This document shows positions 31,982-45,863 of a DNA stretch of 64,000 nt, piece by piece. Every line of letters begins with the position of its first letter. Positions within the stretch are counted from its first letter, which is position 1. Origin of the DNA: Escherichia phage vB_Ec-G1. The stretch lies in sequence record PQ433349.1; one strand, 5' to 3'. The translations under genes and the position numbers were made by a program. The notes below the pieces were generated by a model. That model saw nothing but the letters and a program-made list of their open reading frames with translations, was not told where the DNA came from and searched no databases.

Positions 31982-32340
31982 TTGACGTTCAAATTATGCG
32001 CAACGAAAGAATGGACTTCTTTGAAGCAGTAGAGAAACATCTGATCCGATGGGACTATGAATTTGTTCCTGCTGGATGTGGACCAGTAGAGCATTTAGCG
32101 GAAGACGACGATGTATACATGATCATTCGTCAAGTGTACCAGACAGACCAGTGTGAAGAAACTCCCGAACTGATTTTGTTTGAGTGTAAAGATCTTGCAA
32201 AATATTTTGACTATGGCGGAAAAGAGGGTCATAATCTCTCCAGATACAATAAACGTCTACTTATCTTAGACTACATGCGGAACAACAAACACAAACTCAT
32301 CGACGCAGACGCAGTTTATGGCTACTGGTGGATGGACTAA
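31975..32340 (+). CDS. hypothetical protein (121 aa)
   Basis: Track ORF. Confidence 0.5.
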   Translation: MLVDVQIMRNERMDFFEAVEKHLIRWDYEFVPAGCGPVEHLAEDDDVYMIIRQVYQTDQCEETPELILFECKDLAKYFDYGGKEGHNLSRYNKRLLILDYMRNNKHKLIDADAVYGYWWMD

Positions 32341-32353
32341 CAAAGGAGAAACT

Positions 32354-32533
32354 ATGGCACGTTTAGCAGATCATGAAATCTTTAAACCTATTCTGAACCA
32401 CTATGATGAACTTAAAGCAGTGTTGGATTGTTATAGAGAGGATGAAGAACGTTTGGAAGTCAATCTTAAGATAGTTCTGATGAAAGCTTTTCAAGACGGG
32501 CAAGCTAAAGTTTTAGAAGGCATGAAAAAATGA
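32354..32533 (+). CDS. small hypothetical protein
   Basis: Trimmed to ATG after AAAGGAGA RBS. Confidence 0.45.
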   Translation: MARLADHEIFKPILNHYDELKAVLDCYREDEERLEVNLKIVLMKAFQDGQAKVLEGMKK

Positions 32534-33072
32534 GAATAACTGATGAATATGTATTCTTCTTTTCACATAAAGATGTGTTTAGTAATTGGTATATTGCACC
32601 CTTTACAGAAACTGAACCAGGTTACAATGAGACTTTCTGTTGTGTTGAGCAATATATGATGTGGCGTAAGGCTTTGCTGTTCAAGGATCATGCGATTGCA
32701 GCAGCTATCCTTGATCACTCAACTATACGTGACAACGAGAGGAAACAAGCATACTACAAACGTATGGGTCGAGCGGTATCTGGTTTTAATAATGATATGT
32801 GGGAAGAGAACCGTGAGCGTATTGTTATGCGAGGCTTATGCTTGAAATATGTACAGAATCCAGATTTGTATGCAGACTTACACCTTTACCAATACAAAAC
32901 GTTTGTTGAAGCAAGCCCCTACGATAAGGTTTACGGAATTGGAATGGGGATGTATGAACCAGGGGTGCTAAACCCTGCTACCTGGAAAGGGCAGAATCTT
33001 TTAGGCAAATATCATAATAAACTGATCGAAATACTTTTCCCAGACAAAATACCGCAAAGACGATATTTGTGA
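32530..33072 (+). CDS. NADAR (YbiA-like, DUF1768) domain protein
   Basis: 180 aa; F.F...SNWY..PF...F..VEQYMMWRKALLF...MGRAV..F...W...R...M...KY.QNP.L...L.....FVEASPYD..YGIG pattern matches NADAR. Confidence 0.6.
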   Translation: MRITDEYVFFFSHKDVFSNWYIAPFTETEPGYNETFCCVEQYMMWRKALLFKDHAIAAAILDHSTIRDNERKQAYYKRMGRAVSGFNNDMWEENRERIVMRGLCLKYVQNPDLYADLHLYQYKTFVEASPYDKVYGIGMGMYEPGVLNPATWKGQNLLGKYHNKLIEILFPDKIPQRRYL

Positions 33073-33127
33073 TATTTTAACTTTTTTCATTTTTAGAACA
33101 AAGGTGTCACTTTGTAGCACAGAAATA

Positions 33128-33163
33128 AGGCTCCTACAGCACCGTAGAGAGCCTGTTATTTTG
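33128..33163 (+). terminator. rho-independent terminator after NADAR gene
   Basis: GGCTCCTAC-agcacc-GTAGAGAGCC hairpin followed by TGTTATTTTGT. Confidence 0.55.
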
Positions 33164-33169
33164 TCCTAT

Positions 33170-33520
33170 ACAAACCCTTATCTTTTTCAGTTTGCATCAC
33201 TAGGATTCGATCTAAGTGGGTTCCTGAAGGTCTGCCAATAAGATTAAAGGTTATCTCAAATTCCCACTACCTATTATCTCAAAAATCCCTCAAATTATTT
33301 AAACTTTTTAAGAATTTACAAAAGTGAAAGTTGAAAACCAAAATTTAAAGTTTAGGAAAATTATCTTAAAATGTTAGATACAAAACAAAACTCAAAAATC
33401 AAGGAAAATTTTAAAAATTTTGCGCGCCCACAGTATTTAAAGTTTTTTTGCTTTTACAAAAATGAAAGTACAAAAGCAAAATTTAAAGTTTACAAAAATT
33501 TATGCAGATGGGAATGAGAA
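33170..33520. repeat. AT-rich intergenic region with short direct repeats
   Basis: Repeated TTATCTCAAA, AAATTTAAAGTTTA and TTTACAAAARTGAAAGT units; no ORF. Confidence 0.45.
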
Positions 33521-33620
33521 GAGTTCTCATATGGAAATGCAAATGATAATGATTCGCATTTAGGTTTATAAATGAGATTGATTCTTATTCAATAAGGTAA
33601 ATGATAATCATTCTCATTTA
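33512..33620. promoter_or_regulatory. three tandem palindromic operator-like sites (Fur-box-like)
   Basis: ATGAGAAgagTTCTCAT, AAATGATAATgATTCGCATTT and AAATGATAATcATTCTCATTT; resemble the TGATAATnATTATCA Fur-box core. Confidence 0.45.
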
Positions 33621-33878
33621 AAGAATGACGCGCAGGGGCGGTGTTTGTCTCGCGCTCCCGTGTCCCCTCGCCATGTAATAAGAATAACAGATCCAGCCAG
33701 GAAAGCAAGCGATTATTTTATCTTTACATTTCTTTACAAATATATAGCGCCCAGCCTACCGGCGATCAACCTTCCAACCAGTGCCCCCTGGTATGTTAGC
33801 CCCGCCTTTACGCCGTGGGGTGGCGCTTCCTCTTCTGTATGTAAAACAGTATAAGCCCGATCCCTGGGCTTGTCAAGA

Positions 33879-34145
33879 TTATTTTTTGTTTTCTTGCCAG
33901 GATAGGACACCTAACCAAAAATATATATCGCCCCGCGCCCCTGGTGGTATCTTGCTTTCCCCGCCGCCACTGCAAGCCCATAGATAACCATTTGCGAACG
34001 TATCAAAATGATCTATCTCTTCCACCTTATGATCGCCCAGGTTGAGAACGGTTTCAACCTTTAAGCCCGTTGCGCTTGCTACCTGGTGCACCGTGCCGCC
34101 TTGCCAGCCCAATGAGTGCATAAGGTGTAATGTAGTATTTGTCAT
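33879..34145 (-). CDS. hypothetical protein (88 aa) on opposite strand in a GC-rich island
   Basis: Only minus-strand ORF inside the plus block; GC-rich codons; plausible RBS; function unknown. Confidence 0.3.
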   Translation of the reverse strand: MTNTTLHLMHSLGWQGGTVHQVASATGLKVETVLNLGDHKVEEIDHFDTFANGYLWACSGGGESKIPPGARGDIYFWLGVLSWQENKK

Positions 34146-34254
34146 GGTATCGCCCTTTCTTTGATGTGCGCCCTGGTTGGCGCGGTAGAAAGATGATAGC
34201 CCTTTCTTTTATATATAGCAAGCAAAAAGAAAATAAAAAAGATTGAAAAAGTGA

Positions 34255-34313
34255 TTGACGTTCGCCAGGTGGCGGCATAATATTTACCACGTAGGGCGGC
34301 AATGGTGCCGCTC
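34255..34313 (+). promoter_or_regulatory. cassette 1: promoter + stem-loop
   Basis: TTGACG-N17-TAATAT then GGGCGGCaatggtGCCGCTC. Confidence 0.55.
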
Positions 34314-34332
34314 ATTATTTGGAGTTAAAATC

Positions 34333-34530
34333 ATGGCAACATTGCACATTGTGGCGAAAGCTGGACAAATAAACGTGGTAGTAAACGGTTTTACTGAGTT
34401 CAGTCATCCCCAGGATGATCATGAAACGGTTTTATCTTTCATTGATTCACTGTTAGAAATGGGAGTAATTACAGAAGACCAGCACGCTACAAAATGCAAG
34501 CGCGTTAATCAAATTGCAGGGATAGAATAA
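34333..34530 (+). CDS. small hypothetical protein
   Basis: Track ORF 34255..34530 trimmed to ATG downstream of cassette 1 hairpin with GGAG RBS. Confidence 0.5.
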   Translation: MATLHIVAKAGQINVVVNGFTEFSHPQDDHETVLSFIDSLLEMGVITEDQHATKCKRVNQIAGIE

Positions 34531-34536
34531 AAAGTA

Positions 34537-34599
34537 TTGACAACAAACAACAACCTGATAAGATGTATCACATAGGGCGGCGGAATGGTCCAGCCGCTC
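34537..34599 (+). promoter_or_regulatory. cassette 2: promoter + stem-loop
   Basis: TTGACA-N16-TAAGAT then GGGCGGCGGaatggtCCAGCCGCTC. Confidence 0.55.
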
Positions 34600-34622
34600 A
34601 CAACAGAAGAGAGATTATAATC

Positions 34623-34895
34623 ATGGCATCATATAGCGCAACAATGATCGTAGCTGGCACCACTGGTAAACCTATGCGCGGTGGCGGATCTTTCGCTAAT
34701 ATCAATATTGACGGGCGTTTATCCCTGGACGCAGCGATCACCGTGGCGCGGGAAACATTTAAGAAAGAATGTAAATTCAATAAACAAGATTATCTCGGTT
34801 TCGCTATTGAAAAAACCGCGCGTTTTGTTGATTATAAAAGCCCAAAAATGGTTGATACTACACTAAAAGCGCAAGATGTAGCGTTTTTGCTTTAA
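34623..34895 (+). CDS. hypothetical protein
   Basis: Track ORF 34563..34895 trimmed to ATG after cassette 2 leader. Confidence 0.5.
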   Translation: MASYSATMIVAGTTGKPMRGGGSFANINIDGRLSLDAAITVARETFKKECKFNKQDYLGFAIEKTARFVDYKSPKMVDTTLKAQDVAFLL

Positions 34896-34898
34896 GGC

Positions 34899-34954
34899 TT
34901 GACATTAACGAATAATTTGTTAATATGTTACATAAAGCGGGAATAGTTCCCGCT
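34899..34954 (+). promoter_or_regulatory. cassette 3: promoter + stem-loop
   Basis: TTGACA then GCGGGAAtagTTCCCGC hairpin. Confidence 0.5.
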
Positions 34955-34971
34955 ATTTGTAAGGTGGTAGA

Positions 34972-35229
34972 ATGTTTTACATCAAATTAAAAGGTCACGT
35001 GATCGCGTTCAAAGATAACGCTTTTTACAGATTAGCAAAATATGCGTTAATACATCCCCACTATGTTTATATAAGGGGGCGTGATGAAATAAATATCTTT
35101 GATCAAACAACATGCGAGAACATCGAGATCCGCAAGGTTGGCGTACGTGATTATCGTACATCTTTCTACCCTTGCAAGGATTCAGCAAGTCTTTTTAAAG
35201 TATGCCAATTGTTGAAAAAAGGTGGTTAA
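34972..35229 (+). CDS. hypothetical protein (85 aa)
   Basis: Track ORF after cassette 3. Confidence 0.5.
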   Translation: MFYIKLKGHVIAFKDNAFYRLAKYALIHPHYVYIRGRDEINIFDQTTCENIEIRKVGVRDYRTSFYPCKDSASLFKVCQLLKKGG

Positions 35230-35230
35230 T

Positions 35231-35788
35231 ATGGGCCGCGAATATGTGATCCAGTCTTGGGTAAAACATGAAGCAGATGATCCGCGCATCATTCCCGATC
35301 ATCTTATCGATGAATCCACGGGATATAGCGGTGAGCAAATAGGTAACAGATTAGCACGTAGTAACGGCAACGTAAAAGCGCGTTATGTGCGCCCTGGTTG
35401 GCTGGCAAATGGTAACGCTGATTTATCCAGTGCGGAAGATGCGAGCGACGGCGCGAAAGATAATCCTTTGTACAAAGTTGATCCGGCTTTTCGTGTCCTG
35501 GATGAATACCCCAGCAAGATAGCGGCGCTCGATCAGGCCCTGGAAAGTAAGCGCATCACCTGGACCGCTTACAACATGGCAAAAAACGTACTTGATGGTA
35601 AATTGATTCAAGCTGAAAGAAAATTAGCCAAAATTGCAGCCATAGCCCAGGAGGAAGACGAGGAGACAACGGAAGAGGAAGAGTACGAAGAGATCCCGCC
35701 GTTGTTGTGTGTTGATGCTTTTCCTGATTATCAGCCGACAGAGGAAGAAAAAAGGATCGCACTAGAAAACTTTGAAAATAGTCTTTGA
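35231..35788 (+). CDS. hypothetical protein with acidic C-terminus
   Basis: Track ORF trimmed to ATG after AAGGTGG RBS. Confidence 0.5.
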   Translation: MGREYVIQSWVKHEADDPRIIPDHLIDESTGYSGEQIGNRLARSNGNVKARYVRPGWLANGNADLSSAEDASDGAKDNPLYKVDPAFRVLDEYPSKIAALDQALESKRITWTAYNMAKNVLDGKLIQAERKLAKIAAIAQEEDEETTEEEEYEEIPPLLCVDAFPDYQPTEEEKRIALENFENSL

Positions 35789-35843
35789 CATATCGCCGCC
35801 ACTGGCATAATATTTACCACGTAGGGCGGCAATGGTGCCGCTC
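35785..35843 (+). promoter_or_regulatory. cassette 5: promoter + stem-loop
   Basis: TTGACA-N17-TAATAT then GGGCGGCaatggtGCCGCTC (near-identical to cassette 1). Confidence 0.55.
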
Positions 35844-35870
35844 ATAGTGAAATTATGCAAGAGGCTTACA

Positions 35871-35966
35871 ATGATTAATAAAGAAAATAGCTTGACGGTT
35901 GGAACGATTAACGCTATCATTCTAGCCGTTCCATTTTGGATTGTAGTAGCGGCTATTATTTTCTAA
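35871..35966 (+). CDS. small hydrophobic peptide (~31 aa)
   Basis: Below track cut-off; single predicted transmembrane helix; downstream of cassette 5. Confidence 0.3.
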   Translation: MINKENSLTVGTINAIILAVPFWIVVAAIIF

Positions 35967-35974
35967 AAATATTC

Positions 35975-36036
35975 TTGACAACGTTTTTTAATCTGATAAG
36001 ATGTATCACATAGGGCGGCGGAATACTTCCCCGCCA
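35975..36036 (+). promoter_or_regulatory. cassette 6: promoter + stem-loop
   Basis: TTGACA-N16-TAAGAT then GGCGGCGGAAtacTTCCCCGCC hairpin. Confidence 0.5.
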
Positions 36037-36056
36037 AAACAAAAAAGGGTAACACA

Positions 36057-36419
36057 ATGAGCAAGCAAATCAATACTATCATGTTTAATCTGGTATCTTT
36101 CCGCGATGATATGAAAAATTTACCACGTGAAACGGTTGATATTCATGTTTCAGCTTATCGCGCCCTTATTGACATGTTACCGCTAAAACGTGATCAACAT
36201 GCCGCTAATATGATGCTTAATGCTATGCTTAAAAAGATGATTCAAACGGATCTTACTCTGGCGTATGAGTATCAAGGGCGCTTATATGCGACTTACAACA
36301 AAGCGGTACCTGGTCTGGGAAGTACCGAAGAGTTGCACGGCTTAAACCTGGATCAAAACACTTGGGATAGTATGCGCCGCGTTATGGTATGGGCCGAAAG
36401 CGGTAAAATTTACGAATAA
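36057..36419 (+). CDS. hypothetical protein (120 aa)
   Basis: Track ORF after cassette 6. Confidence 0.55.
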   Translation: MSKQINTIMFNLVSFRDDMKNLPRETVDIHVSAYRALIDMLPLKRDQHAANMMLNAMLKKMIQTDLTLAYEYQGRLYATYNKAVPGLGSTEELHGLNLDQNTWDSMRRVMVWAESGKIYE

Positions 36420-36425
36420 AAACGG

Positions 36426-36482
36426 TTGACACTGTTTAAACTTCTGGTATAGTTTATCACGTAGGGCGGCAATGGTGCCGCC
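36426..36482 (+). promoter_or_regulatory. cassette 7: promoter + stem-loop
   Basis: TTGACA-N17-TATAGT then GGGCGGCaatggtGCCGCC. Confidence 0.55.
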
Positions 36483-36502
36483 AACAATAAAAGGTTAACA
36501 TC

Positions 36503-36682
36503 ATGGCTATCATTGCAAAAACTGAGATTATAGGTTTAGATTCGATCCTCCTGGCTTATGAGGAAACTTTAAAAATGTATGTAGTGACCTATGGTGATTA
36601 TGTGCGTGAATACGAATACATTGATCTTGCTTTCGAATGTTACATTCGCCAGGTCAATAAAGCCTATAATGATTATCGTTAA
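36503..36682 (+). CDS. small hypothetical protein (~59 aa)
   Basis: Below track cut-off; follows cassette 7 with RBS. Confidence 0.4.
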   Translation: MAIIAKTEIIGLDSILLAYEETLKMYVVTYGDYVREYEYIDLAFECYIRQVNKAYNDYR

Positions 36683-36701
36683 AAGTTTTAGTCTTATACT
36701 A

Positions 36702-36753
36702 TTGACAATGAGTGATAGTATAAGCATAATAACTTTTATCGGGAATACTTCCC
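36702..36753 (+). promoter_or_regulatory. cassette 8: promoter flanked by palindrome, short stem-loop
   Basis: CTTATACTAtTGACAATGAGTGATAGTATAAG inverted repeat spanning -35; CATAAT -10; GGGAAtacTTCCC hairpin. Confidence 0.45.
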
Positions 36754-36779
36754 ACTAACCAAAAAGAGAGAGTGACACC

Positions 36780-37145
36780 ATGGCTATTAATATCAATGTT
36801 TCCGCTTATGCTACCCTGGCTAACACGGCTAAAATTGAATTATCCAGCATTGAGGCGGTGCATATTAGCGCCCGTCGCTGGTTTCAACGGTCCTACGGTA
36901 ATACATATTTTTCTTTAATGGTTGACGTTGAGATCGGCGGTAAACTGATCGAGGTGGTTAACGTTCCGTTTCAATATGGCTATGGTGATCATTTTGATAC
37001 CGTCGCCCTGGAAGAATTTAGCAAGGTTATTAATATGGAAGGTAAAGAGTTTTCACGTGGCGCGTATCTTTCCCGTTTTTGCCGTGATAATGGGATCACT
37101 GTATACAGTCATGCAAGCGATGTAAAACGTAAAAAAGATTTATAA
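36780..37145 (+). CDS. hypothetical protein (121 aa)
   Basis: Track ORF after cassette 8. Confidence 0.55.
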   Translation: MAININVSAYATLANTAKIELSSIEAVHISARRWFQRSYGNTYFSLMVDVEIGGKLIEVVNVPFQYGYGDHFDTVALEEFSKVINMEGKEFSRGAYLSRFCRDNGITVYSHASDVKRKKDL

Positions 37146-37151
37146 AAAGCA

Positions 37152-37210
37152 TTGACAGCACGAATAAAAAGAGTAAACTGTATTACATAGAGAGCGGGAA
37201 TAGTTCCCGC
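37152..37210 (+). promoter_or_regulatory. cassette 9: promoter + stem-loop
   Basis: TTGACA then GCGGGAAtagTTCCCGC. Confidence 0.5.
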
Positions 37211-37234
37211 CTCACTGAAAAAGAGAGAAAAATC

Positions 37235-37474
37235 ATGGCTAAATCTAAAATGTACAACGGTCACAAAAACAAAACTCATTGGAATGTAAGCCTGTGGATT
37301 AATAACGATGAGGGATTGTATCGGTTTGCATTGGGATTGATCAATGAGTGCGGTAATAAAGATCAGGCGGCTGATTTAATGTGCTACCGTTTGAAACAGG
37401 ATGGAATCACTACAACGCCAGACGGCTTTAAGTATAGTAAAACTGCAATCCGCGCCGCTATGGTTGGAATGTAA
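37235..37474 (+). CDS. hypothetical protein (79 aa)
   Basis: Track ORF after cassette 9. Confidence 0.5.
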   Translation: MAKSKMYNGHKNKTHWNVSLWINNDEGLYRFALGLINECGNKDQAADLMCYRLKQDGITTTPDGFKYSKTAIRAAMVGM

Positions 37475-37483
37475 TAAAAACAG

Positions 37484-37544
37484 TTGACAACGTTTAAAAT
37501 TAGTGTAAGATGTATCACATAGGGCGGGAAATGGTTTCCCGCTC
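37484..37544 (+). promoter_or_regulatory. cassette 10: promoter + stem-loop
   Basis: TTGACA-N16-TAAGAT then GGGCGGGAAatggtTTCCCGCTC. Confidence 0.55.
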
Positions 37545-37568
37545 ACAACAGAAGAGAGATTAAAGATT

Positions 37569-37796
37569 ATGGCTATCAATATTGTTCGCGTATCCGGTAC
37601 CGTTGGTAACTCCCAGGTTGTAGCAGTTATCACAGAGAAGAAAGGGGATGATCTTCACTCTTCCTTGAATAGCTGGGCGGTCGCTAACTTCGGGCAATGG
37701 TCGAGCGTTGAGTACATCGAATCCTACCAGGTGCCGACGATTAGCCTAACCGATCTCAACGTTGATCGCTTGTTGTGCCTGGATGAATTAATCTGA
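37569..37796 (+). CDS. hypothetical protein (75 aa)
   Basis: Track ORF after cassette 10. Confidence 0.5.
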   Translation: MAINIVRVSGTVGNSQVVAVITEKKGDDLHSSLNSWAVANFGQWSSVEYIESYQVPTISLTDLNVDRLLCLDELI

Positions 37797-37806
37797 AAAA
37801 AGATTA

Positions 37807-37868
37807 TTGACACCGGAAAGAAAAAGAGTAGAATATATTACATAGGGCGGCGGAATGGTCCACCGCTC
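37807..37868 (+). promoter_or_regulatory. cassette 11: promoter + stem-loop
   Basis: TTGACA then GGGCGGCGGaatggtCCACCGCTC. Confidence 0.55.
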
Positions 37869-37891
37869 ACAACAGAAGAGAGATTATCACG

Positions 37892-38107
37892 ATGGCTAAT
37901 ATCCGCACTTTACTGAAAAATGCAAGTCAAGTTTTATTTTCAGATGACGAGTATTTCAATAAAGACATTACAGGCGTGAAAAATTTAAAAGACGTGAAGG
38001 ATGTTATCGGTATCCGTGGATCTTTACGTAAGGGCGATTACTACGGTAACAAGGTGCAATATAAACTGTCAAAGGATTACAATTTTACTTTGACAATTAT
38101 TTCATAA
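37892..38107 (+). CDS. hypothetical protein (71 aa)
   Basis: Track ORF after cassette 11. Confidence 0.5.
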   Translation: MANIRTLLKNASQVLFSDDEYFNKDITGVKNLKDVKDVIGIRGSLRKGDYYGNKVQYKLSKDYNFTLTIIS

Positions 38108-38113
38108 AACCGC

Positions 38114-38173
38114 TTGCAATACTGCAAAAATAAAGTAAACTATATTCATCAAGGCGGGGAATGGTCCGCCGCC
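38114..38173 (+). promoter_or_regulatory. cassette 12: promoter + stem-loop
   Basis: TTGCAA-like -35 then GGCGGGGaatggtCCGCCGCC hairpin. Confidence 0.45.
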
Positions 38174-38197
38174 TAACAAAGAGAAGAGGAAAACATC

Positions 38198-38365
38198 ATG
38201 ATCACTTTCGCTACCCGTGAAGCCGCTCGCAACGTTGCACGTAAAGTTAACGCCGCCAACCTGGGCGCTACGCTTAAAGCCCCGGTGAAAGATGAATCAG
38301 GCAAATGGATCTTCCCTGGTCTGCGTCATGCTGACAAGTTAGGTACTTTAAGCCTTAAAAAATAA
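38198..38365 (+). CDS. small basic protein (~55 aa) starting MITFA
   Basis: Below track cut-off; shares MITFA N-terminus with next ORF. Confidence 0.4.
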   Translation: MITFATREAARNVARKVNAANLGATLKAPVKDESGKWIFPGLRHADKLGTLSLKK

Positions 38366-38368
38366 TCG

Positions 38369-38403
38369 TTGACTTTTCGTTATAGCGCCTTACAATGGGC
38401 GCT
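38369..38403 (+). promoter_or_regulatory. cassette 13 variant: promoter with palindrome overlapping -10
   Basis: TTGACT-N16-TACAAT; TATAGCGCC...GGCGCTATA inverted repeat spans the -10. Confidence 0.45.
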
Positions 38404-38439
38404 ATAGAGAAGAGAAACCACTGCTAACAAGGAAACATC

Positions 38440-38661
38440 ATGATCACTTTCGCTATTGTCGCCGTTGTCGCTGGTCAGGTTTACGTAAACGATACATTCA
38501 CCACAGAAGACAAGGCCGCAGGAGACATAACCGCCGTTTACAATGAGTGCAAGGCAGTAGAAAGGATGTTAGCGCCTTGTATGCTAATGAGTGAACGCCA
38601 GGACGGGATAACAGTATTTACTAACATTGAAACAGGGTACCAAATGGTAGTAACAAAATAA
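38440..38661 (+). CDS. hypothetical protein (73 aa) starting MITFA
   Basis: Track ORF. Confidence 0.5.
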   Translation: MITFAIVAVVAGQVYVNDTFTTEDKAAGDITAVYNECKAVERMLAPCMLMSERQDGITVFTNIETGYQMVVTK

Positions 38662-38664
38662 AGC

Positions 38665-38723
38665 TTGACACGGATTTAATTTTTAGTAAACTGTTACACG
38701 TAGGGCGGGAATAGTTCCCGCTC
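38665..38723 (+). promoter_or_regulatory. cassette 14: promoter + stem-loop
   Basis: TTGACA then GGGCGGGAAtagTTCCCGCTC. Confidence 0.55.
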
Positions 38724-38740
38724 AAAAAGAGAGAAAGACC

Positions 38741-39094
38741 ATGAAAGCACAAAATGCAATTAAAGAGTACATCCTTGCCGCTATCGATTTTAATGATTAC
38801 GGTATTACAACCGAAAAAGAGAAGATCGCGGAATTGATGCGCCGTTTTAATTCCGAGTACTGGTACCCTGATAACCAATCACGTTTTAATTATAGTATTG
38901 TTAAAGCACTTGCATCATGGTTACAAGGCTTGCCATCAGATATCAATATCGCTTTCGAATATTGGGAAATTGATCGCCTGTTAACATCCTGGGGATACAT
39001 TAAAGAGAATAGCAGCGATGATAAAATCCAACGAGAAAGGGAAAATTATTGGCTTTATATTGCAGGCGTGATCCTTGCTTGCTCTTATGAATGA
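38741..39094 (+). CDS. hypothetical protein (117 aa)
   Basis: Track ORF after cassette 14. Confidence 0.55.
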   Translation: MKAQNAIKEYILAAIDFNDYGITTEKEKIAELMRRFNSEYWYPDNQSRFNYSIVKALASWLQGLPSDINIAFEYWEIDRLLTSWGYIKENSSDDKIQRERENYWLYIAGVILACSYE

Positions 39095-39100
39095 TAAACC

Positions 39101-39154
39101 TTGACAATTTTACAAAACAGTTTAAATTAACAATATAGCGGCAATGGTGCCGCT
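39101..39154 (+). promoter_or_regulatory. cassette 15: promoter + stem-loop
   Basis: TTGACA then AGCGGCaatggtGCCGCT. Confidence 0.5.
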
Positions 39155-39173
39155 CATATGAAGAGGAAACAAA

Positions 39174-39320
39174 ATGAATACATCTAATCGCGCAGAAAAA
39201 ATTCAATCTTCCAAGATCCGCAAGGCCTGGAACGAGGAAGTGATCCGCAAAGGCGACAAGCGCAATAAAACAAAGCGCGGGAAGAGTGACAAATATAATT
39301 GGATGGATTTAGAGGATTAA
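39174..39320 (+). CDS. small basic protein (~48 aa)
   Basis: Below track cut-off; RBS AGAGGAAA; followed by terminator. Confidence 0.4.
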   Translation: MNTSNRAEKIQSSKIRKAWNEEVIRKGDKRNKTKRGKSDKYNWMDLED

Positions 39321-39327
39321 CATAACA

Positions 39328-39355
39328 AGGGCGCACCAAGCGCCCTTTCTTTTTA
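39328..39355 (+). terminator. rho-independent terminator
   Basis: AGGGCGC-acca-AGCGCCCT hairpin followed by TTCTTTTTAT. Confidence 0.65.
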
Positions 39356-39375
39356 TATACAGAGGATAAACAAAG

Positions 39376-39561
39376 ATGACTTTAAACGAGCTTAAAACAG
39401 CCTACAACGCAACATTAAAAATAGCCGTGCGTTACCGTGATGCGTATGGTTTTATCGCGCAGGGCGTGATCCTGGGCTTTTCTGACGATGGTTTGATCTA
39501 TGTTGATGCACATCACAACAAGGTTAAACCTGAAAACGTCATTAACATAAAATATCTTTAA
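39376..39561 (+). CDS. small hypothetical protein (61 aa)
   Basis: Track ORF. Confidence 0.45.
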   Translation: MTLNELKTAYNATLKIAVRYRDAYGFIAQGVILGFSDDGLIYVDAHHNKVKPENVINIKYL

Positions 39562-39567
39562 AAACGG

Positions 39568-39627
39568 TTGACACCATAACCGGACCTGTTAAACTGTATT
39601 ACATCAGGCGGGGGAATAGTTCCCCAC
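39568..39627 (+). promoter_or_regulatory. cassette 16: promoter + stem-loop
   Basis: TTGACA then GGCGGGGGAAtagTTCCCC. Confidence 0.5.
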
Positions 39628-39647
39628 CATACAAAAAGGTAAATATT

Positions 39648-39854
39648 ATGATCACCGCAAAACAAGAAAAAATTATTATCGACGTTGCAGCCGTTGCCGC
39701 TATTGCTATTATTGGATCTTATTATGATACCCGTTTCCCGTCGGCTATGCATGAGATCGCCGCCGTTGCATCAGTTGGCGTGCTGTTTTACGTTGGTAAA
39801 CGCTATTTATCACCAATGATTAACAAGCTAACACCGTGGAAAAATAAAGGTTGA
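39648..39854 (+). CDS. small membrane protein (68 aa)
   Basis: Track ORF; hydrophobic segments. Confidence 0.5.
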   Translation: MITAKQEKIIIDVAAVAAIAIIGSYYDTRFPSAMHEIAAVASVGVLFYVGKRYLSPMINKLTPWKNKG

Positions 39855-39905
39855 TCCTGCTTTATATTGTGTTATAGTTATCGTGTAGGGCGGCAATGGT
39901 GCCGC
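39851..39905 (+). promoter_or_regulatory. cassette 17: promoter + stem-loop
   Basis: TTGATC -35 then GCGGCAatggTGCCGC hairpin. Confidence 0.45.
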
Positions 39906-39926
39906 GCCCCCTTTGAGGATGAAATC

Positions 39927-40211
39927 ATGAGTAAAGCTAACACCGTGCTAATGTTTTCCTTGGTTAATGATGCCGCTTACTTGTCCAACATGACGCAGGA
40001 GGGTAACACATTAACGGCAACATTCACCAATAAGCTTAATCGAGTGATCATCATCTCACTGAAAACAATTAGTAAAGGCGTTTACTCGTTAGCTTATCAT
40101 TGGATCACTGATACCAACGAGACAAGCCAGGACTATAGCGCCCCTTTCCCTGAATCAATGGCACGGGAGATCATCGCCGCCGTTGTAAATGATGGTTTGT
40201 TTACTGCATAA
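39927..40211 (+). CDS. hypothetical protein
   Basis: Track ORF 39867..40211 trimmed to ATG after hairpin/RBS. Confidence 0.5.
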   Translation: MSKANTVLMFSLVNDAAYLSNMTQEGNTLTATFTNKLNRVIIISLKTISKGVYSLAYHWITDTNETSQDYSAPFPESMAREIIAAVVNDGLFTA

Positions 40212-40229
40212 AATAATTTAGAAAAAGGC

Positions 40230-40286
40230 TTGCAATCATTTTGAGATAGTGTATATTTAATTCATAGGGCGGCGGGAATAGTTCCC
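40230..40286 (+). promoter_or_regulatory. cassette 18: promoter + stem-loop
   Basis: TTGCAA-like -35 then GGCGGGAAtagTTCCC. Confidence 0.45.
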
Positions 40287-40309
40287 AAGGCAAACGAGAG
40301 GATTACACG

Positions 40310-40429
40310 ATGAGCAAGTACACAGTAGAATACACGGTACAAAATCCGGCAGTATCCGAAGGTAAAAAGATGACATTTGCCATCAGTATAATCGCTTTCG
40401 TTGTCACTATCTTATTAATCATCTTATAA
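40310..40429 (+). CDS. small hydrophobic peptide (~39 aa)
   Basis: Below track cut-off; C-terminal transmembrane helix; RBS GAGAGGA. Confidence 0.3.
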   Translation: MSKYTVEYTVQNPAVSEGKKMTFAISIIAFVVTILLIIL

Positions 40430-40439
40430 GGTGCGTACC

Positions 40440-40601
40440 ATGAAAACAACAGACATTATCAAAGAGATCGCCCTTGCCGCTGACGTTGAGATCGAGGAAG
40501 TGATCGCGCTCAATCTTACAGAAGAAGACTTGCGCAATTATGAAGCGGAAAGCGTGAAAGCAAGCGGCGCGGTCCTGGCATATAATCCGGCTAACAAGTA
40601 A
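40440..40601 (+). CDS. small acidic protein (~53 aa)
   Basis: Below track cut-off; same direction, short spacing. Confidence 0.3.
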   Translation: MKTTDIIKEIALAADVEIEEVIALNLTEEDLRNYEAESVKASGAVLAYNPANK

Positions 40602-40610
40602 GGGGATAAC

Positions 40611-40760
40611 ATGAATCCGAAAGATATGCAAGCATGGAAAGGGTACGACGATCTAAGCGCCTTGCGCAATAAGTCAAGCCGTAACCTTAGACGGTTAGAA
40701 GCAAAGAAAAAGAAAAACAGTTTGACAAGTCCGCTTAATCTGGTAAAGTGTATCTCGTAG
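40611..40760 (+). CDS. small basic protein (~49 aa)
   Basis: Below track cut-off; GGGGA RBS; 3' end overlaps next cassette. Confidence 0.25.
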   Translation: MNPKDMQAWKGYDDLSALRNKSSRNLRRLEAKKKKNSLTSPLNLVKCIS

Positions 40761-40778
40761 GGCGGCAATGATGCCGCT
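40722..40778 (+). promoter_or_regulatory. cassette 19: promoter + stem-loop
   Basis: TTGACA then GGGCGGCaatgatGCCGCTC. Confidence 0.55.
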
Positions 40779-40798
40779 CACAAGAAGAGAGAAAAATC

Positions 40799-41083
40799 AT
40801 GAAGATCACAAAAAGCCTAACTAATTATGCAGCACGTCGCGGATTATGCTTAACCGTTGAAAACTTAGGGAAAGAAGATTTTTTGTGTTTTTGGGAGCTT
40901 GAAAATGATTGCGAGTGGATGTTTTCTTATTCTATCTGCGAAGATCAAAACGGTTGTTTGTTAACCTGGCGCGGTAATATCTATTTACCGCAAGAAATTA
41001 AAGAGGAATTACCAGGTACGATCATGACAGAGAGACAGCTTAAGGAAGTGATCAATTTTGTAGGGCAAAACATTAAAAAATAA
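40799..41083 (+). CDS. hypothetical protein (94 aa)
   Basis: Track ORF after cassette 19. Confidence 0.55.
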   Translation: MKITKSLTNYAARRGLCLTVENLGKEDFLCFWELENDCEWMFSYSICEDQNGCLLTWRGNIYLPQEIKEELPGTIMTERQLKEVINFVGQNIKK

Positions 41084-41084
41084 T

Positions 41085-41146
41085 TTGACAGCAGGCAAAC
41101 AACGTAGTAAAGTTTATCACATAGGGCGGGAAATGGTTTCCCGCTC
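41085..41146 (+). promoter_or_regulatory. cassette 20: promoter + stem-loop
   Basis: TTGACA then GGGCGGGAAatggtTTCCCGCTC. Confidence 0.55.
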
Positions 41147-41167
41147 ACAGCAGAAGAGAGACACATC

Positions 41168-41338
41168 ATGATCCCGACTATGTTTTATGTATCGCGCAAA
41201 GGTCACAATATTTTTTGGTCTGAAGATTTAAATGAAGCTATGACGTTTGCCCGTGATCGTGTTGCTATCGGTGGCGTTAATATCACCGTAACCGATGAAA
41301 ACGGCATTGAATACTATAACGGCGACGATGAAGAGTAA
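41168..41338 (+). CDS. small hypothetical protein (~56 aa)
   Basis: Below track cut-off; follows cassette 20; followed by AAGCTGTATT...AATACAGCTT hairpin. Confidence 0.4.
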   Translation: MIPTMFYVSRKGHNIFWSEDLNEAMTFARDRVAIGGVNITVTDENGIEYYNGDDEE

Positions 41339-41397
41339 TTAACAACCTGGAAGCTGTATTTTTACAATACAGCTTAAAAGGTGTAGTAAAATAATTC

Positions 41398-41467
41398 TTG
41401 ACAATAGTTTGTTACTTGATAGAATGTATCACGTAGGGCGGGGCAATAAGGCAACGCCCATTAATGA
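41398..41467 (+). promoter_or_regulatory. cassette 21: promoter + stem-loop
   Basis: TTGACA then GGGCG...CGCCC hairpin with larger loop. Confidence 0.45.
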
Positions 41468-41477
41468 GGGTAGAATC

Positions 41478-41582
41478 ATGTTAGAGAAAATTTTCACGGT
41501 TGTAATAGTAGGCCTGGCGTTATCGGTTGGAGTGGTTGCAACTATGGCTAACATGATCCTATCTTCCCACGGTATCGATTAA
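41478..41582 (+). CDS. small hydrophobic peptide (~34 aa)
   Basis: Below track cut-off; single transmembrane helix. Confidence 0.3.
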   Translation: MLEKIFTVVIVGLALSVGVVATMANMILSSHGID

Positions 41583-41592
41583 GGTGAAACAG

Positions 41593-41808
41593 ATGATCAC
41601 GAACAAAACAGGCAAAACAGAATTTTTACGCGGCTTACAAGTCGGTAAGCCTGAGATCTGGCATTGCAGCAAGTCGGCGCATAACGAAATGAAAGACTTT
41701 ACCGCTACTTTACAACGTGTTAAAATATCTATCACACAGAAAAAAGCCTTGTTAGTAGTAGAAAACGAGATCCCGCAAACTATTATTATTGTCGAGCGTA
41801 CAGCATGA
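41593..41808 (+). CDS. hypothetical protein
   Basis: Track ORF 41584..41808 trimmed to ATG after AAGGTG RBS. Confidence 0.5.
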   Translation: MITNKTGKTEFLRGLQVGKPEIWHCSKSAHNEMKDFTATLQRVKISITQKKALLVVENEIPQTIIIVERTA

Positions 41809-42191
41809 AAACAGAAATCATTATTGAAATCATCAACGGTTATAAAGAAGCCTTTATTTTTGCTGAATCAGCCAGGGATCACGAAGGTAATTTTATTGAT
41901 AACTTAGACGATTATGATTTTTCAGATCAAGCCCATCAGCGGATCGCCCAGGATGTAACAGCCTTTATTAATGCTAATCTTGCCGCTATCTCTGAGGCAA
42001 TGAGCGACGGCGCAACAGCCAACCAGATCGGGAATGATTTACATTTTACCCGTAACGGTCACGGCGTAGGATTTTGGGATCGCCCTGAAATATACACCAC
42101 TAACACGGCGAACCGCCTAACCAATGCAGCTAAGTTTATGCCGAATGTGTCGGCTTACATTGGTGAAGATAATTTGATTTATATTGAATAA
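41805..42191 (+). CDS. hypothetical acidic protein (128 aa)
   Basis: Track ORF, overlapping start/stop with upstream gene. Confidence 0.55.
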   Translation: MKTEIIIEIINGYKEAFIFAESARDHEGNFIDNLDDYDFSDQAHQRIAQDVTAFINANLAAISEAMSDGATANQIGNDLHFTRNGHGVGFWDRPEIYTTNTANRLTNAAKFMPNVSAYIGEDNLIYIE

Positions 42192-42197
42192 AAAGTA

Positions 42198-42254
42198 TTG
42201 ACACAGATCGCCAGTGTGCTAATATTTACCACGTAGGGCGGCAATGGTGCCGCC
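42198..42254 (+). promoter_or_regulatory. cassette 23: promoter + stem-loop
   Basis: TTGACA-N17-TAATAT then GGGCGGCaatggtGCCGCC. Confidence 0.55.
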
Positions 42255-42272
42255 GATAACGAGGAAAGTAAA

Positions 42273-42572
42273 ATGGAAACTATCGCTATTGTTACCGTAG
42301 AAAAACTGGTTGTTGGTGATGTATTCGCGTTAATGGTGCCTAACAGCAGCAAGCTGGGCGCTTATGAAGTGATGGACCATAAAAATGAATCATTTGGCGA
42401 CGGTTGCACAATGGCGGTAAGATCCTTAAAGGATGGAATCATCCGCCAGGCTAACTGGCACAAAGGGAATCAAGTCGGTTTAATATCAGCTAATTTCTTG
42501 CCAGAAGAGCAAACATTAGACCAACTATCAGGCGGTAAGACGTTAGCCGAACTACTGGAAACAGCGATCTAA
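42273..42572 (+). CDS. hypothetical protein (99 aa)
   Basis: Track ORF after cassette 23; followed by GGGGCGgcaaCGCCCC hairpin. Confidence 0.55.
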   Translation: METIAIVTVEKLVVGDVFALMVPNSSKLGAYEVMDHKNESFGDGCTMAVRSLKDGIIRQANWHKGNQVGLISANFLPEEQTLDQLSGGKTLAELLETAI

Positions 42573-42625
42573 TCAACAAAGGGGCGGCAACGCCCCATTA
42601 AACGCAATAGGAAGAGGATAGACAC

Positions 42626-42916
42626 ATGAAAAAGATGATCGCAGTAGTTGCCCTGGTTGTTGGTATTAACGCGCCTGTACTGGCTAATGAGTTGCCAGAA
42701 TCCATCACGCTAACCGATATCCACGCAATAAACCGGATCGGCGTTAATTATCGCCTATGCCTTGCCGCTAAAACTTTTAAGGACGGCGAAACAGAATATC
42801 ACGGATTCGAGGGCATCCGCTGCGGTGAGCTTGCACGCGACCTTAAGGAAGATCCAGACCTTGAGGCCATACCGATGACCGTAAACGGTAAAGCCTACGT
42901 AAGCCGCCAACAATGA
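42626..42916 (+). CDS. secreted hypothetical protein
   Basis: 96 aa; signal peptide MKKMIAVVALVVGINAPVLA. Confidence 0.55.
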   Translation: MKKMIAVVALVVGINAPVLANELPESITLTDIHAINRIGVNYRLCLAAKTFKDGETEYHGFEGIRCGELARDLKEDPDLEAIPMTVNGKAYVSRQQ

Positions 42917-43047
42917 GAAAGGTAATCATCACAATGGGGATCATAGTAGCGACGCTGGCGCTTATCCCCTTTATAGTTGAATATGTGCTGATAAGTGTTG
43001 TCCTGGTAGTCAGTGACCTATTGGAAACGGTTGGCAACTGGTTTTAA
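42913..43047 (+). CDS. small hydrophobic peptide (~44 aa)
   Basis: Below track cut-off; ATGA overlap with upstream stop; hydrophobic throughout. Confidence 0.3.
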   Translation: MRKVIITMGIIVATLALIPFIVEYVLISVVLVVSDLLETVGNWF

Positions 43048-43225
43048 AAATAAGAAAAACAGGACTTGTTTTTGTTCTGTTTTTTGTTATACTTATTGAA
43101 CGGGCGGCACCTGGAAGCAGGGGGAAGATAATCACCGGAAGACCCCGCTATATATTGATAACTAACGCCTATCAAACAACAAAACATCAAAGGAATAAAC
43201 TATCAAATCTTTACAATTCTACCTA

Positions 43226-43286
43226 TTGACACCGGATCACGCTTACATTATTATTTATCACGTAGGGCGAGCAATACAGCAAGCCC
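43226..43286 (+). promoter_or_regulatory. cassette 24: promoter + stem-loop
   Basis: TTGACA then GGGC...GCCC hairpin. Confidence 0.45.
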
Positions 43287-43304
43287 ACAAAGAGGAAAAT
43301 AAAA

Positions 43305-43672
43305 TGAGCAAATCAGCAATTAAAGCACTTGAAAAAGCACAAGAAGTGATCGCAACGTCAACCACTGGCGCAAAGGTTAATCTTGTTGGTTATCTGACAG
43401 ATGAAACTATCCGTAAAAATTGGCGTAATGCTGATTTACTGGCTTGCTTATTGATTAATAGTGTCGCTAATGCTTTCCAGTGTGAAACAGTCGAGAGCCT
43501 GGAAGAAAACTTGTTCGACAATATGGATCAAGCCATTGAAATATATATTCAATCCAACTTAGATAGCTGGAACAGTAAAACATGGCCTGACAGCTTACGC
43601 AATACAACTGATCAACTGATCCGCCTTGCGGTGATGGTTGAACGCGATAACGTTTACAACAGCACAAAGTAA
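43305..43672 (+). CDS. hypothetical protein
   Basis: Track ORF 43226..43672 trimmed to ATG after RBS GAGGAAA. Confidence 0.55.
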
Positions 43673-43692
43673 GATTATACAAGGGGCGCACT

Positions 43693-43720
43693 AAGCGCCC
43701 TTTATTTTTGCCCGAACAAT
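43693..43720 (+). terminator. rho-independent terminator closing the cassette array
   Basis: AGGGGCGC-acta-AGCGCCCT hairpin followed by TTATTTTTG. Confidence 0.65.
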
Positions 43721-44688
43721 GTTGATAGCTTAAACCTATGAAAAACCGACACAGAACAAAATTGCATAATTTGCGCTATCGAGCTAATCAACCATTAAAC
43801 GAATAACCATACATCCCAGGGAAACAGGTTGTTAGAGAGCTATTTAGAGCGGTTAAAATCGATCTACAACCAACAACAAACCATCAAAAACACCCTTTTA
43901 CCTCCTTTCTAGTGCAATGATAACCATTATCATCTACCTATGATTATCTATTCAATATAAGTGCATAACTATAATGTTGATAATAGTTCGCAACAACTAA
44001 CCCACCAACAACCTAAAACAATAAGCAAACTAATCATAATCAAAGGAATAATAGCAAGATGATTGATAACGACAAACAATCAAACCATGATGAATATTAA
44101 GCAAGATAACGATAACACGACAAAACAACCAACTAACGAACAATAACAAACGAAACCATTAAAAGATCAACTATTAGCAAAATAGTGCCTATTGCCATAA
44201 TAGTGACTTAATGAAATCATTACAAAATGAATCATTCCAAGGATCATCATTAGCACGCTACGCCGGACACGTAGCGAGCTAATAATAAGCCAACTACACC
44301 CCAACAATCATAACCATCGGTGACGGTTATTTCTTGTTACTGCGTAGCTTGCAATAATTGCAAGCGTAATGACGCTTACACTTATTGCGCTGGCTTATTA
44401 TTAGCATTATATGTAATTACCAAGATCATAACATTAGCGCAATAACAATAATCATTGTGGTAATTACAAGATGAAATCATTAGCAAGATGAATAATTGCA
44501 CGTAGCAACATGAGCGAATAGCGACAGGTTGCATAGTGTGCACATAGTGTATAAACATACAAGAAAATAAAGGCTAATCTTTTGGGGGCGAATACTATCG
44601 CGTAGCGATATGTTGAGCACCTTCTCTTAAACGTAAATAAAATCAGAAAATTCTTGATTTATTTTAGTTTTTATGTTAATAAACGTTT

Positions 44689-44709
44689 AAATAATAATCA
44701 TTCTCATAT
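44689..44709. promoter_or_regulatory. Fur-box-like operator site
   Basis: AAATAATAATCATTCTCATAT resembles the sites at 33541-33620. Confidence 0.35.
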
Positions 44710-44867
44710 AAATAATAGTCTGCTTGTCATGAGCGGGATTAGTTGACATTGTTCCGTCATATGATGAAGTTGCCAAACCATTGATAAATAAGTGTTTGTG
44801 TGATTTATAATCAAGTGGCCCACCTTGTCGCTATGTTGGCATGAGCCTTGCATAAGTCATTGAATAC

Positions 44868-44888
44868 GAATGATAATTATTCTCATTC
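44868..44888. promoter_or_regulatory. Fur-box-like near-perfect palindrome
   Basis: GAATGATAAT-T-ATTCTCATTC, 10-1-10 inverted repeat with one mismatch. Confidence 0.45.
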
Positions 44889-45228
44889 GCATGATATTTG
44901 GGAATTGTCGCTGCGTGGACCTGACGGCCCGAAAATTCGCGTTAAGCACTTCTTACGTATGCGCCATGATTTTTGCCATATGATATTGATTCTATTAGAT
45001 ATTCTTGCCATGATTGCCATGAAACAGGGTGTCCCGAAATAATCTCTCCCCGTAGATATTTTGGGTTACTTTTTATACAAGAGTGGGGTGTCAAAAATAA
45101 TCGGTATATATGGGATAATTGATAGGAATCCCCTATGATAATTCGATTGTAATTCCCTAAGATTGATCGTATGATGTTGGTGATTGATGATTGCCATGAA
45201 AGATGGCTAACGATGAGAGGAGATTGTC

Positions 45229-45603
45229 ATGCAAGAGAGTAAAAATGTTCCGTTGAGTAGTGCAACATTGCTTCGCTTCTATAAAGCATGGATTGCCAAC
45301 TATCCTGCAATGAATCGCACAACGAGTGGCTTATGTGGTTGTCTGGTAGATTATGTAAATGATTTTGTTGGTGAGACAACCAGAGAAGAAGATAGAAGAT
45401 GGCGGGATAGTTTGTTGGACCGTTTGAAATATGAAATGAGGAAACAATTTACATGTGCAGGGCTGGACTATAATCTTCCGTTCAATGCAGATTGCATGGA
45501 TTACCTTTCAGAGTGTATAAACTTGGCGTGTCATACCAACACGTTACGTCTTCAGTGGGTGAAAGACAGAATTGAAGATGCAAATAATGCTTGCATTGAA
45601 TAA
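45229..45603 (+). CDS. hypothetical protein, member of 5-copy paralog family
   Basis: 124 aa; shares FY..W...GLC, LPF and R..WVKDR pattern with four other ORFs. Confidence 0.55.
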   Translation: MQESKNVPLSSATLLRFYKAWIANYPAMNRTTSGLCGCLVDYVNDFVGETTREEDRRWRDSLLDRLKYEMRKQFTCAGLDYNLPFNADCMDYLSECINLACHTNTLRLQWVKDRIEDANNACIE

Positions 45604-45652
45604 AGATGTTTGTATAATGGATGACATAACAGATAGCCAATGAGGAGATGAA

Positions 45653-45862
45653 ATGAAGAATTTGAAAACTGTCACAATGTTCTTGACTGATCCTACACGT
45701 GTGCAAGCACTGGCTAAAGCCAGCCGTGTAGCTGTAGAATTCCAAAACTTTAAGCCGTCCGTTGTGACAGGCAGTGAAACGTGTGTTATCGATTTCATTA
45801 ACGAATACTTCCGAGGGAATCCGGTTGGTCGTTACTTCATTAAGGGTCTAAAGGATGCATAA
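45653..45862 (+). CDS. hypothetical protein (69 aa)
   Basis: Track ORF with GAGGAG RBS. Confidence 0.5.
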   Translation: MKNLKTVTMFLTDPTRVQALAKASRVAVEFQNFKPSVVTGSETCVIDFINEYFRGNPVGRYFIKGLKDA

Positions 45863-45863
45863 C

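Follow-up and report, generated by a model that had tools for sequence, protein, structure and literature searches.

Fur-box-like palindromes in two non-coding regions of a virulent coliphage and a conserved candidate RNA locus beside the left-hand array

Do virulent phages carry operators for the host iron regulator Fur in their non-coding DNA, and what might such operators do there? The question is raised by Escherichia phage vB_Ec-G1. In a 64,000-nt stretch of its DNA (PQ433349.1; this whole stretch is called the window below), an initial annotation made from the sequence alone described palindromes close to the enterobacterial Fur box on both sides of an island of small open reading frames (ORFs), and proposed that they control entry into or exit from the island or else mark the boundaries of a recombination module. 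Positions 33000-34200 are 98-99% identical to the phAPEC8-like myoviruses UP17, ESCO13 and ZCKP1 (Phapecoctavirus, Stephanstirmvirinae), relatives that are strictly virulent and have genomes of ~150 kb. GenBank annotation at the box regions offers at most a repeat_region.

The window has a G+C content of 38-40%, and a scan of it for tRNA and tmRNA found no gene. The phage encodes NrdA/NrdB (an iron-dependent class Ia ribonucleotide reductase), ThyX and glutaredoxin; a tblastn search of the ~153 kb genome, i.e., the window plus the remainder of the 99%-identical UP17 genome, which is also the material of the genome-wide scan, found no Fur homologue. Among six neighboring proteins, a Pfam scan detected no DNA-binding domain; Pfam and PHROGs assign a NADAR domain to one upstream protein and no function to the others. 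Several phage records labelled Campylobacter, Pseudomonas (PsgM04F) and Acinetobacter (ABPW7) are 79-99% identical to coliphage sequences over the queried regions, and these host labels are probably mislabels or reflect contaminant isolates.

Fur-like boxes in two non-coding gaps

The boxes are almost confined to two non-coding gaps, one at 33165-33879 and the other at 43704-45228, with a combined length of 2.24 kb, or 1.5% of the genome. Allowing up to 3 mismatches to the consensus of the initial annotation yields 11 strand-matches against 0.19 expected, a number reached in 0 of 100 shuffles. When the ~153 kb genome is scanned with an E. coli Fur matrix at a threshold of at least 15 bits, 8 of the 11 matches fall in the two gaps, where 0.12 would be expected and where 1000 simulations using the gaps' own composition produce a maximum of 2; the remaining ~150 kb (the rest of the window and of UP17) contains only 3 further matches. 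The principal features of the two gaps are:

33291-33500, no strand: two copies of a ~72-nt A/T-rich direct repeat (138-bp period, 82% identity), directly left of the array
33513-33531, no strand: box 1, Fur-like, AATGAGAAGAGTTCTCATA, 15.4 bits
33542-33560, no strand: box 2, Fur-like, AATGATAATGATTCGCATT, 24.4 bits, with an overlapping match 6 bp leftward (33536)
33571-33589, no strand: box 3, Fur-like, AATGAGATTGATTCTTATT, 21.1 bits, 18/19 identical to palindrome I of phage T5
33600-33618, no strand: box 4 (proximal), Fur-like, AATGATAATCATTCTCATT, 27.6 bits, above all E. coli training sites
43704-45228, no strand: second long non-coding gap, ~1.5 kb, after the island terminator, with an A-rich plus strand; holds boxes 5-7
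43916-43934, no strand: box 5, Fur-like, AATGATAACCATTATCATC, 21.2 bits, invariant in four Phapecoctavirus genomes
44690-44708, no strand: box 6, Fur-like, AATAATAATCATTCTCATA, 23.7 bits, 18/18 to the ryhB operator core
44863-44887, no strand: box 7, Fur-like, AATACGAATGATAATTATTCTCATT, two overlapping matches 6 bp apart (17.8 and 27.2 bits)

The sequence at the coordinates first reported matches its description, and the best copy, described as a 10-1-10 inverted repeat with one mismatch, is found as such at 33599-33619 (AAATGATAAT-C-ATTCTCATTT). The left cluster, given as three palindromes, is present but comprises four units, which start at 33513, 33542, 33571 and 33600 with a period of exactly 29 bp; the linkers that separate them are not conserved. 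On the right, both sites listed initially (~44689-44709 and 44868-44888) are there, but the list was incomplete: it lacked one more good site (43916-43934) as well as a weaker site in the vicinity of 44393.

Phage muut has a different Fur-like box at the position of box 5, and phiWec181 and PsgM04F carry one extra GATAAT hexamer at the 44869 box, a change of exactly one Fur hexamer unit, and the 19-mer score there rises to 24.6 bits. No ORF of 40 aa or longer is present between 43692 and 44166, and two small conserved palindromes lie at 44253-44279 and 44349-44363. The ORF-free stretch 43960-44240 is strongly strand-asymmetric (A 137, C 54, G 31, T 58) and rich in GATAA and ATCAT words; it is followed by the two palindromes, the former a conserved hairpin and the latter a perfect palindrome, TTGCAATAATTGCAA. 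In muut, the region matching 43960-44363 contains four 16-nt GTAATCATTTCATACA repeats. The GenBank records of ESCO13, ESCO5, Schickermooser and WPEC4 begin inside this gap, at window positions 43745, 44868 and 44944. DnaA boxes (TTWTNCACA) are absent from both gaps, and the whole window has 5 against 11 expected. Boxes 5-7 overlap no convincing conserved sigma-70 promoter; since the many candidates reach only 8-9/12 matches in both directions and none is conserved, a promoter assignment was dropped, and the resemblance of Fur boxes themselves to -10 hexamers further weakens promoter calls around these sites.

Are the palindromes Fur boxes? Here a Fur box is a 19-bp inverted repeat matching GATAATGATAATCATTATC, or 7-1-7 TGATAATnATTATCA; boxes 33600, 44869 and 43916 have one mismatch to the latter and the other copies have 2-4. 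E. coli Fur footprint coordinates were taken from Chen et al. (2007; PMC2189734), and the reference was 68 kb of MG1655 sequence surrounding twelve Fur-regulated promoters; picked around Fur loci, this set covers Fur sites and not the motifs of all other regulators. With a matrix built from 7 phage sites, the top 16 of 67,847 MG1655 positions are all known Fur promoters, namely ryhB, fecI, fhuF (twice), fhuA, entC, fecA, entS, cirA, sodA, fepB and fepA; the first-ranked ryhB site, AATAATAATCATTCTCATT, is identical at 18/19 positions to two phage boxes, the best box included. In the reciprocal direction, the weight-matrix scoring suggested with the initial annotation places the phage sites at 15.4-27.6 bits, within or above the 13.7-25.9 bits of the training sites (12 promoters), and at 13.7 bits the matrix finds zero matches in the 68 kb set beyond known Fur-regulated intergenic regions. 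The palindromes are thus Fur-box-like, as first proposed, in every sequence test run (reciprocal matrices, scores and operator matches).

The direct matches are equally close. The ryhB operator and 44690-44707 agree at 18/18 positions, and a blastn search of 5,426 E. coli genomes with the best box (33600) returns as its best exact match a 20/20 identity just upstream of mntH, among the commonest across the 1,182 matching genomes. The mntH gene is repressed by Fur and MntR. Pairs of overlapping matches 6 bp apart occur at 33536/33542, 33594/33600 and 44863/44869; similarly, Chen et al. (2007; PMC2189734) describe E. coli Fur clusters whose overlapping sites are shifted by 6 (or 3) bp. The half-site variation among the phage boxes falls within that of E. 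coli Fur sites. The arms of the best box are imperfectly complementary yet each is a Fur-compatible half-site (GATAAT / GAGAAT), which favors recognition of DNA by a protein over an RNA hairpin. As Fur-site sequence matches, the palindromes equal or beat E. coli's own operators, and their relevant ligand is probably host Fur.

A conserved candidate RNA locus next to the left array

Window positions 33600-33890 show 70-92% nucleotide conservation across Stephanstirmvirinae and five Vequintavirinae genera, in a block that begins exactly at the proximal box and contains these elements:

33620-33841, minus strand: conserved and non-coding element; probably transcribed leftward, toward the boxes, as a ~220-nt early RNA
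33652-33671, minus strand: covarying hairpin H1, nearer the boxes
33756-33773, minus strand: invariant block, AAGGUUGAUCGCCGGUAG; as RNA AAGGUKGAUCGCCGGUAG, single-stranded
33774-33796, minus strand: bulged hairpin H3, part of the covarying structure
33798-33825, minus strand: hairpin or possible pseudoknot S1/S2, part of the covarying structure
33848-33876, minus strand: strong sigma-70 promoter (TTGACA-17-TATACT, 11/12) with a G+C-rich hairpin in the spacer, pointing into the element
33597-33626, plus strand: candidate Fur-controlled promoter, in the window GTAAAT-18-AAGAAT, weak and inconsistently conserved

In the conserved hairpins, 82.7% of cells are paired, as compared to 26-45% in slid controls, and double changes occur in 10 of 15 pairs; the observed values are matched by 0 of 500 shuffles. 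A small number of G-U pairs favor the minus strand. The minus-strand promoter is present in 19/19 lineages examined (9-11/12). Its distance to the invariant block is 64-77 nt in 18 lineages and 114 nt in the remaining one, an Aeromonas-phage contig. The RNA core also occurs in Aeromonas phages of the 2L372D group. The minus strand of 33620-33876 is a candidate new phage non-coding RNA: Rfam 15 covariance models give no match to 32000-46500 up to E = 1, and no clear intrinsic terminator was found for the minus-strand RNA. A coding role of the conserved ~230 bp was rejected because indels are not multiples of 3, the invariant block lies in differing frames and the small ORFs are unconserved. A GGUG/CGCC helix predicted on the plus strand by RNAalifold was also dropped, as it competes with H1, a hairpin that does covary, and its own changes are confined to one side. 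An RyhB-like RNA or RyhB sponge was rejected because the match is to the ryhB operator alone. A minus-strand match to the RyhB core AAGCACGACATTGCTCA at 10165-10181 (16/17) was taken as chance, given E = 0.13 and the same sense. Host origin was likewise rejected: no E. coli match to 33500-33890 was found.

How does the array relate to this locus? In every Enterobacterales-phage homologue, a high-scoring proximal box lies 147-158 nt from the invariant block; several homologues carry additional boxes, and the 29-bp spacing recurs in Certrevirus and Mydovirus. By sequence, then, the spacing between the proximal box and the conserved, structured element is fixed, and this element is predicted to be read toward the boxes from the minus-strand promoter (33876->33848). 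In the right-hand gap of Phapecoctavirus and Justusliebigvirus, the three boxes are invariant or swapped for other Fur-like boxes, with flanks that have diverged, even between the genera. The alignments show that boxes stay in position as flanks diverge. Their number ranges from 1-3 in rV5-type phages to ~10 per genome in Justusliebigvirus. Since Aeromonas-phage homologues and some metagenomic ones have the RNA core and promoter but no Fur box, the box appears to be an accessory of the locus, not an integral part. In the IMG/VR contig 3300013307_000052, AATGATA-N7-TATCATT and GTTAGTCAC..GTGAGTAAC palindromes lie ~120-220 nt to the left of the invariant block, at the position that the Fur box occupies in enterobacterial phages, in what looks like an operator swap.

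The plus-strand promoter is less clear-cut. Most Vequintavirinae homologues have TTGAAT-18-CAGAAT (8/12) with the spacer taken up by the proximal box, and conservation of the TTG exceeds the needs of Fur; however, the key A2 of the -10 hexamer is missing in Mydovirus and pEa56, and in most lineages other promoter-like matches score better. The place left of the boxes that the 72-nt repeats occupy in the window is taken in CR9, W70, pEa56, GEC and muut by other, genus-specific repeats, e.g., the A/T-rich ACTTGAGAGGTTTTTC (W70, pEa56) and GGTCTCGATCGGTTTTTC (CR9); the position is constant. Such repeats resemble iterons for a co-evolving phage protein. Of the features of an iteron-type origin, the region has the direct repeats, which are genus-specific, and the A/T-rich array; DnaA boxes are missing from the gaps, and no initiator gene was recognized.

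The palindromes do border the small-ORF island (34.2-43.7 kb) on both sides, as initially described, and the same holds in Justusliebigvirus. Between 34250 and 43300 there are at least 13 copies of TTGACA-N17-TAAGAT followed by a GTATCACGTAGGGCGG...CCGC hairpin; this unit, an early promoter with a 5' stem-loop, precedes almost every small island ORF. The ORFs are all shorter than 190 aa, with no large A1-like gene among them, and the island terminator is at 43681-43703. The proposal that the palindromes control entry into or exit from the island finds no support, because the island genes carry their own promoters and no Fur match of 13.7 bits or more lies inside; the left cluster belongs instead to the conserved non-coding RNA locus and is found with it in relatives that lack such an island arrangement.

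Similarities to T5 and to known Fur operators

The array query also matched T5-like phages. In T5 (AY587007.1), palindromes E, G, H and I and copies 1-4 of direct repeat C, at 9473-9637, are near-consensus Fur boxes: those in the injection-stop region score 22.7, 27.6 and 22.8 bits, the highest being AATGAGAATCATTATCATT at 9577, and palindrome I and window box 3 (33571) are the pair that agrees at 18/19 positions. These boxes of Repeat Region 3 lie 30-190 bp from the 7.9% nick, at the first-step-transfer shear point, calculated as 9618 (Davison, bioRxiv 10.1101/866236). The same source describes an ordered set of DnaA boxes in the injection-stop region, and neither it nor a 2026 T5 preprint, the T5 literature searched, mentions Fur. 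The T5 boxes are in a non-coding region with no annotated promoter, so a cis-acting role of the DNA fits them at least as well as gene regulation. In both phages, the palindromes cluster in repeat-rich non-coding DNA, next to ~10 kb in which the early genes are small and have sigma-70 promoters. By contrast, the T5 region has DnaA boxes and sits in a terminal repeat at the nick, whereas the window gaps have no DnaA boxes, and the window has no known terminal repeat and no A1/A2-type genes, its island being seen as small ORFs only.

The phage boxes share with chromosomal E. coli Fur operators (ryhB, mntH, fhuA, fecI, fhuF, entC) the 19-bp inverted repeat, equal or higher scores and the 6-bp offsets. 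Their setting is different: a virulent phage, long non-coding regions, four sites phased at 29 bp, no downstream iron-related gene, and, in the window, weak or unclear overlap with promoters. Fur boxes on phage DNA have a precedent in temperate phages. The stx1 gene is a Fur-regulated cargo gene of such phages. Another case is the sitABCD operon of lambdoid phages, which joins the Fur regulon of the host through a Fur box on the phage DNA (PMC6969025). These are single boxes at promoters of prophage metal or toxin cargo, unlike the arrays described here, which are cargo-free and lie in core non-coding regions. In the literature searched, the only Fur boxes on phages are those in front of the sitABCD cargo operon in lambdoid prophages, and searches on Fur boxes in lytic, T5-like and rV5-like phages, on transcriptomes and on genome termini returned nothing relevant; the rV5 genome map shows an unexplained non-coding box (PMC3606486). 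Against this background, the finding is best described as ordinary Fur operators, by sequence, in an unusual, conserved viral setting.

ColE1 RNA I / RNA II and the coliphage 186 pR / pL are convergent-promoter or antisense RNA control modules. By analogy, the window locus would combine a strong promoter and a facing, regulated promoter ~230 bp apart around a structured RNA. It has no homology to either module, its facing promoter is only predicted, and a role in replication or in a lysis-lysogeny choice is not implied.

What the boxes may do

Our preferred reading, to which we give about an even chance, is that the palindromes are authentic host-Fur operators under selection in two non-coding regions, where they would make the RNA locus iron-responsive and titrate Fur. 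When iron is sufficient, Fe2+-Fur dimers would fill the four 29-bp-phased boxes; bound Fur would shut the weak plus-strand promoter overlapped by the proximal box and/or stop RNA polymerase arriving from the minus-strand promoter, so that a defined early RNA is made and its antisense partner is absent. It is this silencing of the facing promoter and/or block to the polymerase that would render the locus iron-responsive. When iron is scarce, Fur would depart, and antisense or read-through transcription could alter the output of the locus; the early program would thereby be coupled to the iron status of the host. Titration would follow from this and needs no mechanism of its own: each genome brings at least 7 near-consensus sites, replication multiplies them, and together they may draw Fur off the chromosome and de-repress iron uptake while the iron-dependent class Ia ribonucleotide reductase of the phage is at work.

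The arrays could instead act mainly as a Fur sink, with phage DNA, once replicated to hundreds of copies and so offering thousands of high-affinity sites, stripping Fur from the chromosome and turning on iron uptake and RyhB. This seems rather unlikely. Many boxes lack an obvious promoter, the phage scores rise above those of the best host sites, Justusliebigvirus has up to ~10 boxes, and the phage-encoded NrdAB is an iron-requiring enzyme that would benefit; in a Fur titration assay, reportedly described by Stojiljkovic et al. in 1994, one Fur box on a multicopy plasmid suffices to de-repress fhuF. A cell contains roughly 5,000-10,000 copies of Fur. A sink, however, would not depend on position, yet the distance between the proximal box and the RNA block is constant and the 29-bp phasing is kept in three genera; rV5-type phages have only 1-3 boxes, titration requires iron-loaded Fur, and new iron uptake may come too slowly for one lytic cycle. 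We also consider it unlikely that the arrays are a T5-like cis-acting DNA module, i.e., a boundary for staged entry, a replication start or a packaging signal, with Fur as an architectural or roadblock protein or with another factor in its place. The identity of up to 18/19 to the Repeat Region 3 palindromes near the T5 nick and shear point, the shared setting of long, repeat-filled non-coding DNA beside ~10 kb of small early genes, the iteron-like repeats that adjoin the array, the strong promoter that sends a G-rich RNA into A/T-rich DNA and the several GenBank records that start within the right-hand gap would all fit such a module, but record starts may be arbitrary, the gaps differ from T5 in having no DnaA boxes, the island has no large A1-like gene, and staged injection is unreported for these phages in the literature searched.

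The remaining alternatives keep the palindromes but replace Fur, or DNA binding altogether. That the sites bind a phage-encoded protein or a non-Fur host regulator, with the likeness to Fur boxes being coincidence or mimicry, an alternative already raised with the initial annotation, is also unlikely: the unrelated palindromes of the IMG/VR contig imply that the position can host different operators, and most neighboring genes have no known function, but the genome encodes no Fur homologue, the six neighboring proteins match no DNA-binding domain, the identities to the ryhB and mntH operators are complete (18/18 and 20/20), the half-sites vary only within E. coli Fur usage, and the boxes are common to three phage groups with few proteins in common. 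It is very unlikely that the palindromes serve not as DNA sites but as RNA hairpins that weakly terminate the minus-strand RNA or direct processing of its 3' end. The left boxes do lie downstream of a conserved promoter, and on the minus strand each is followed by a short U-rich stretch; yet the stems would be A/U-rich and weak, arm mismatches are tolerated while Fur half-sites are kept, compensatory changes are absent, and neither boxes 5-7 nor the T5 boxes are downstream of such a promoter. Least credible, and close to negligible, is the proposal of the initial annotation that the boxes are recombination boundaries of an exchangeable cassette island: they do flank a variable small-ORF island, but there is no recombinase gene, no core-site-like asymmetry and no breakpoint at the boxes in alignments of relatives, and the left cluster is present in phages that lack the island arrangement.

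A broader conjecture, which we regard as a long shot, is that Fur-box arrays are a shared cis module of virulent enterobacterial phages (T5, rV5-like and phAPEC8/phi92-like), with Fur acting as an architectural or roadblock factor on incoming DNA. If so, the arrays would bound the segment that is expressed or enters first, the onset of infection would depend on iron status, the 10-kb island would be the counterpart of the T5 first-step-transfer DNA, and Fur would be the missing host factor of the T5 injection stop.

Fur boxes on phage DNA were known solely as switches of prophage cargo genes; here, near-consensus sites are conserved in core non-coding control regions of three strictly virulent coliphage groups. 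If Fur binds them, the T5 injection-stop palindromes gain a concrete protein candidate and the candidate new conserved phage RNA gains an experimental handle. These groups are used or proposed as therapy against extra-intestinal E. coli, which face iron limitation; with Fur bound, phage development or the host iron response would depend on iron, and efficacy in serum, urine and the gut may be affected. The sites suggest that the viruses that carry them sense the iron status of their host cell or manipulate it.
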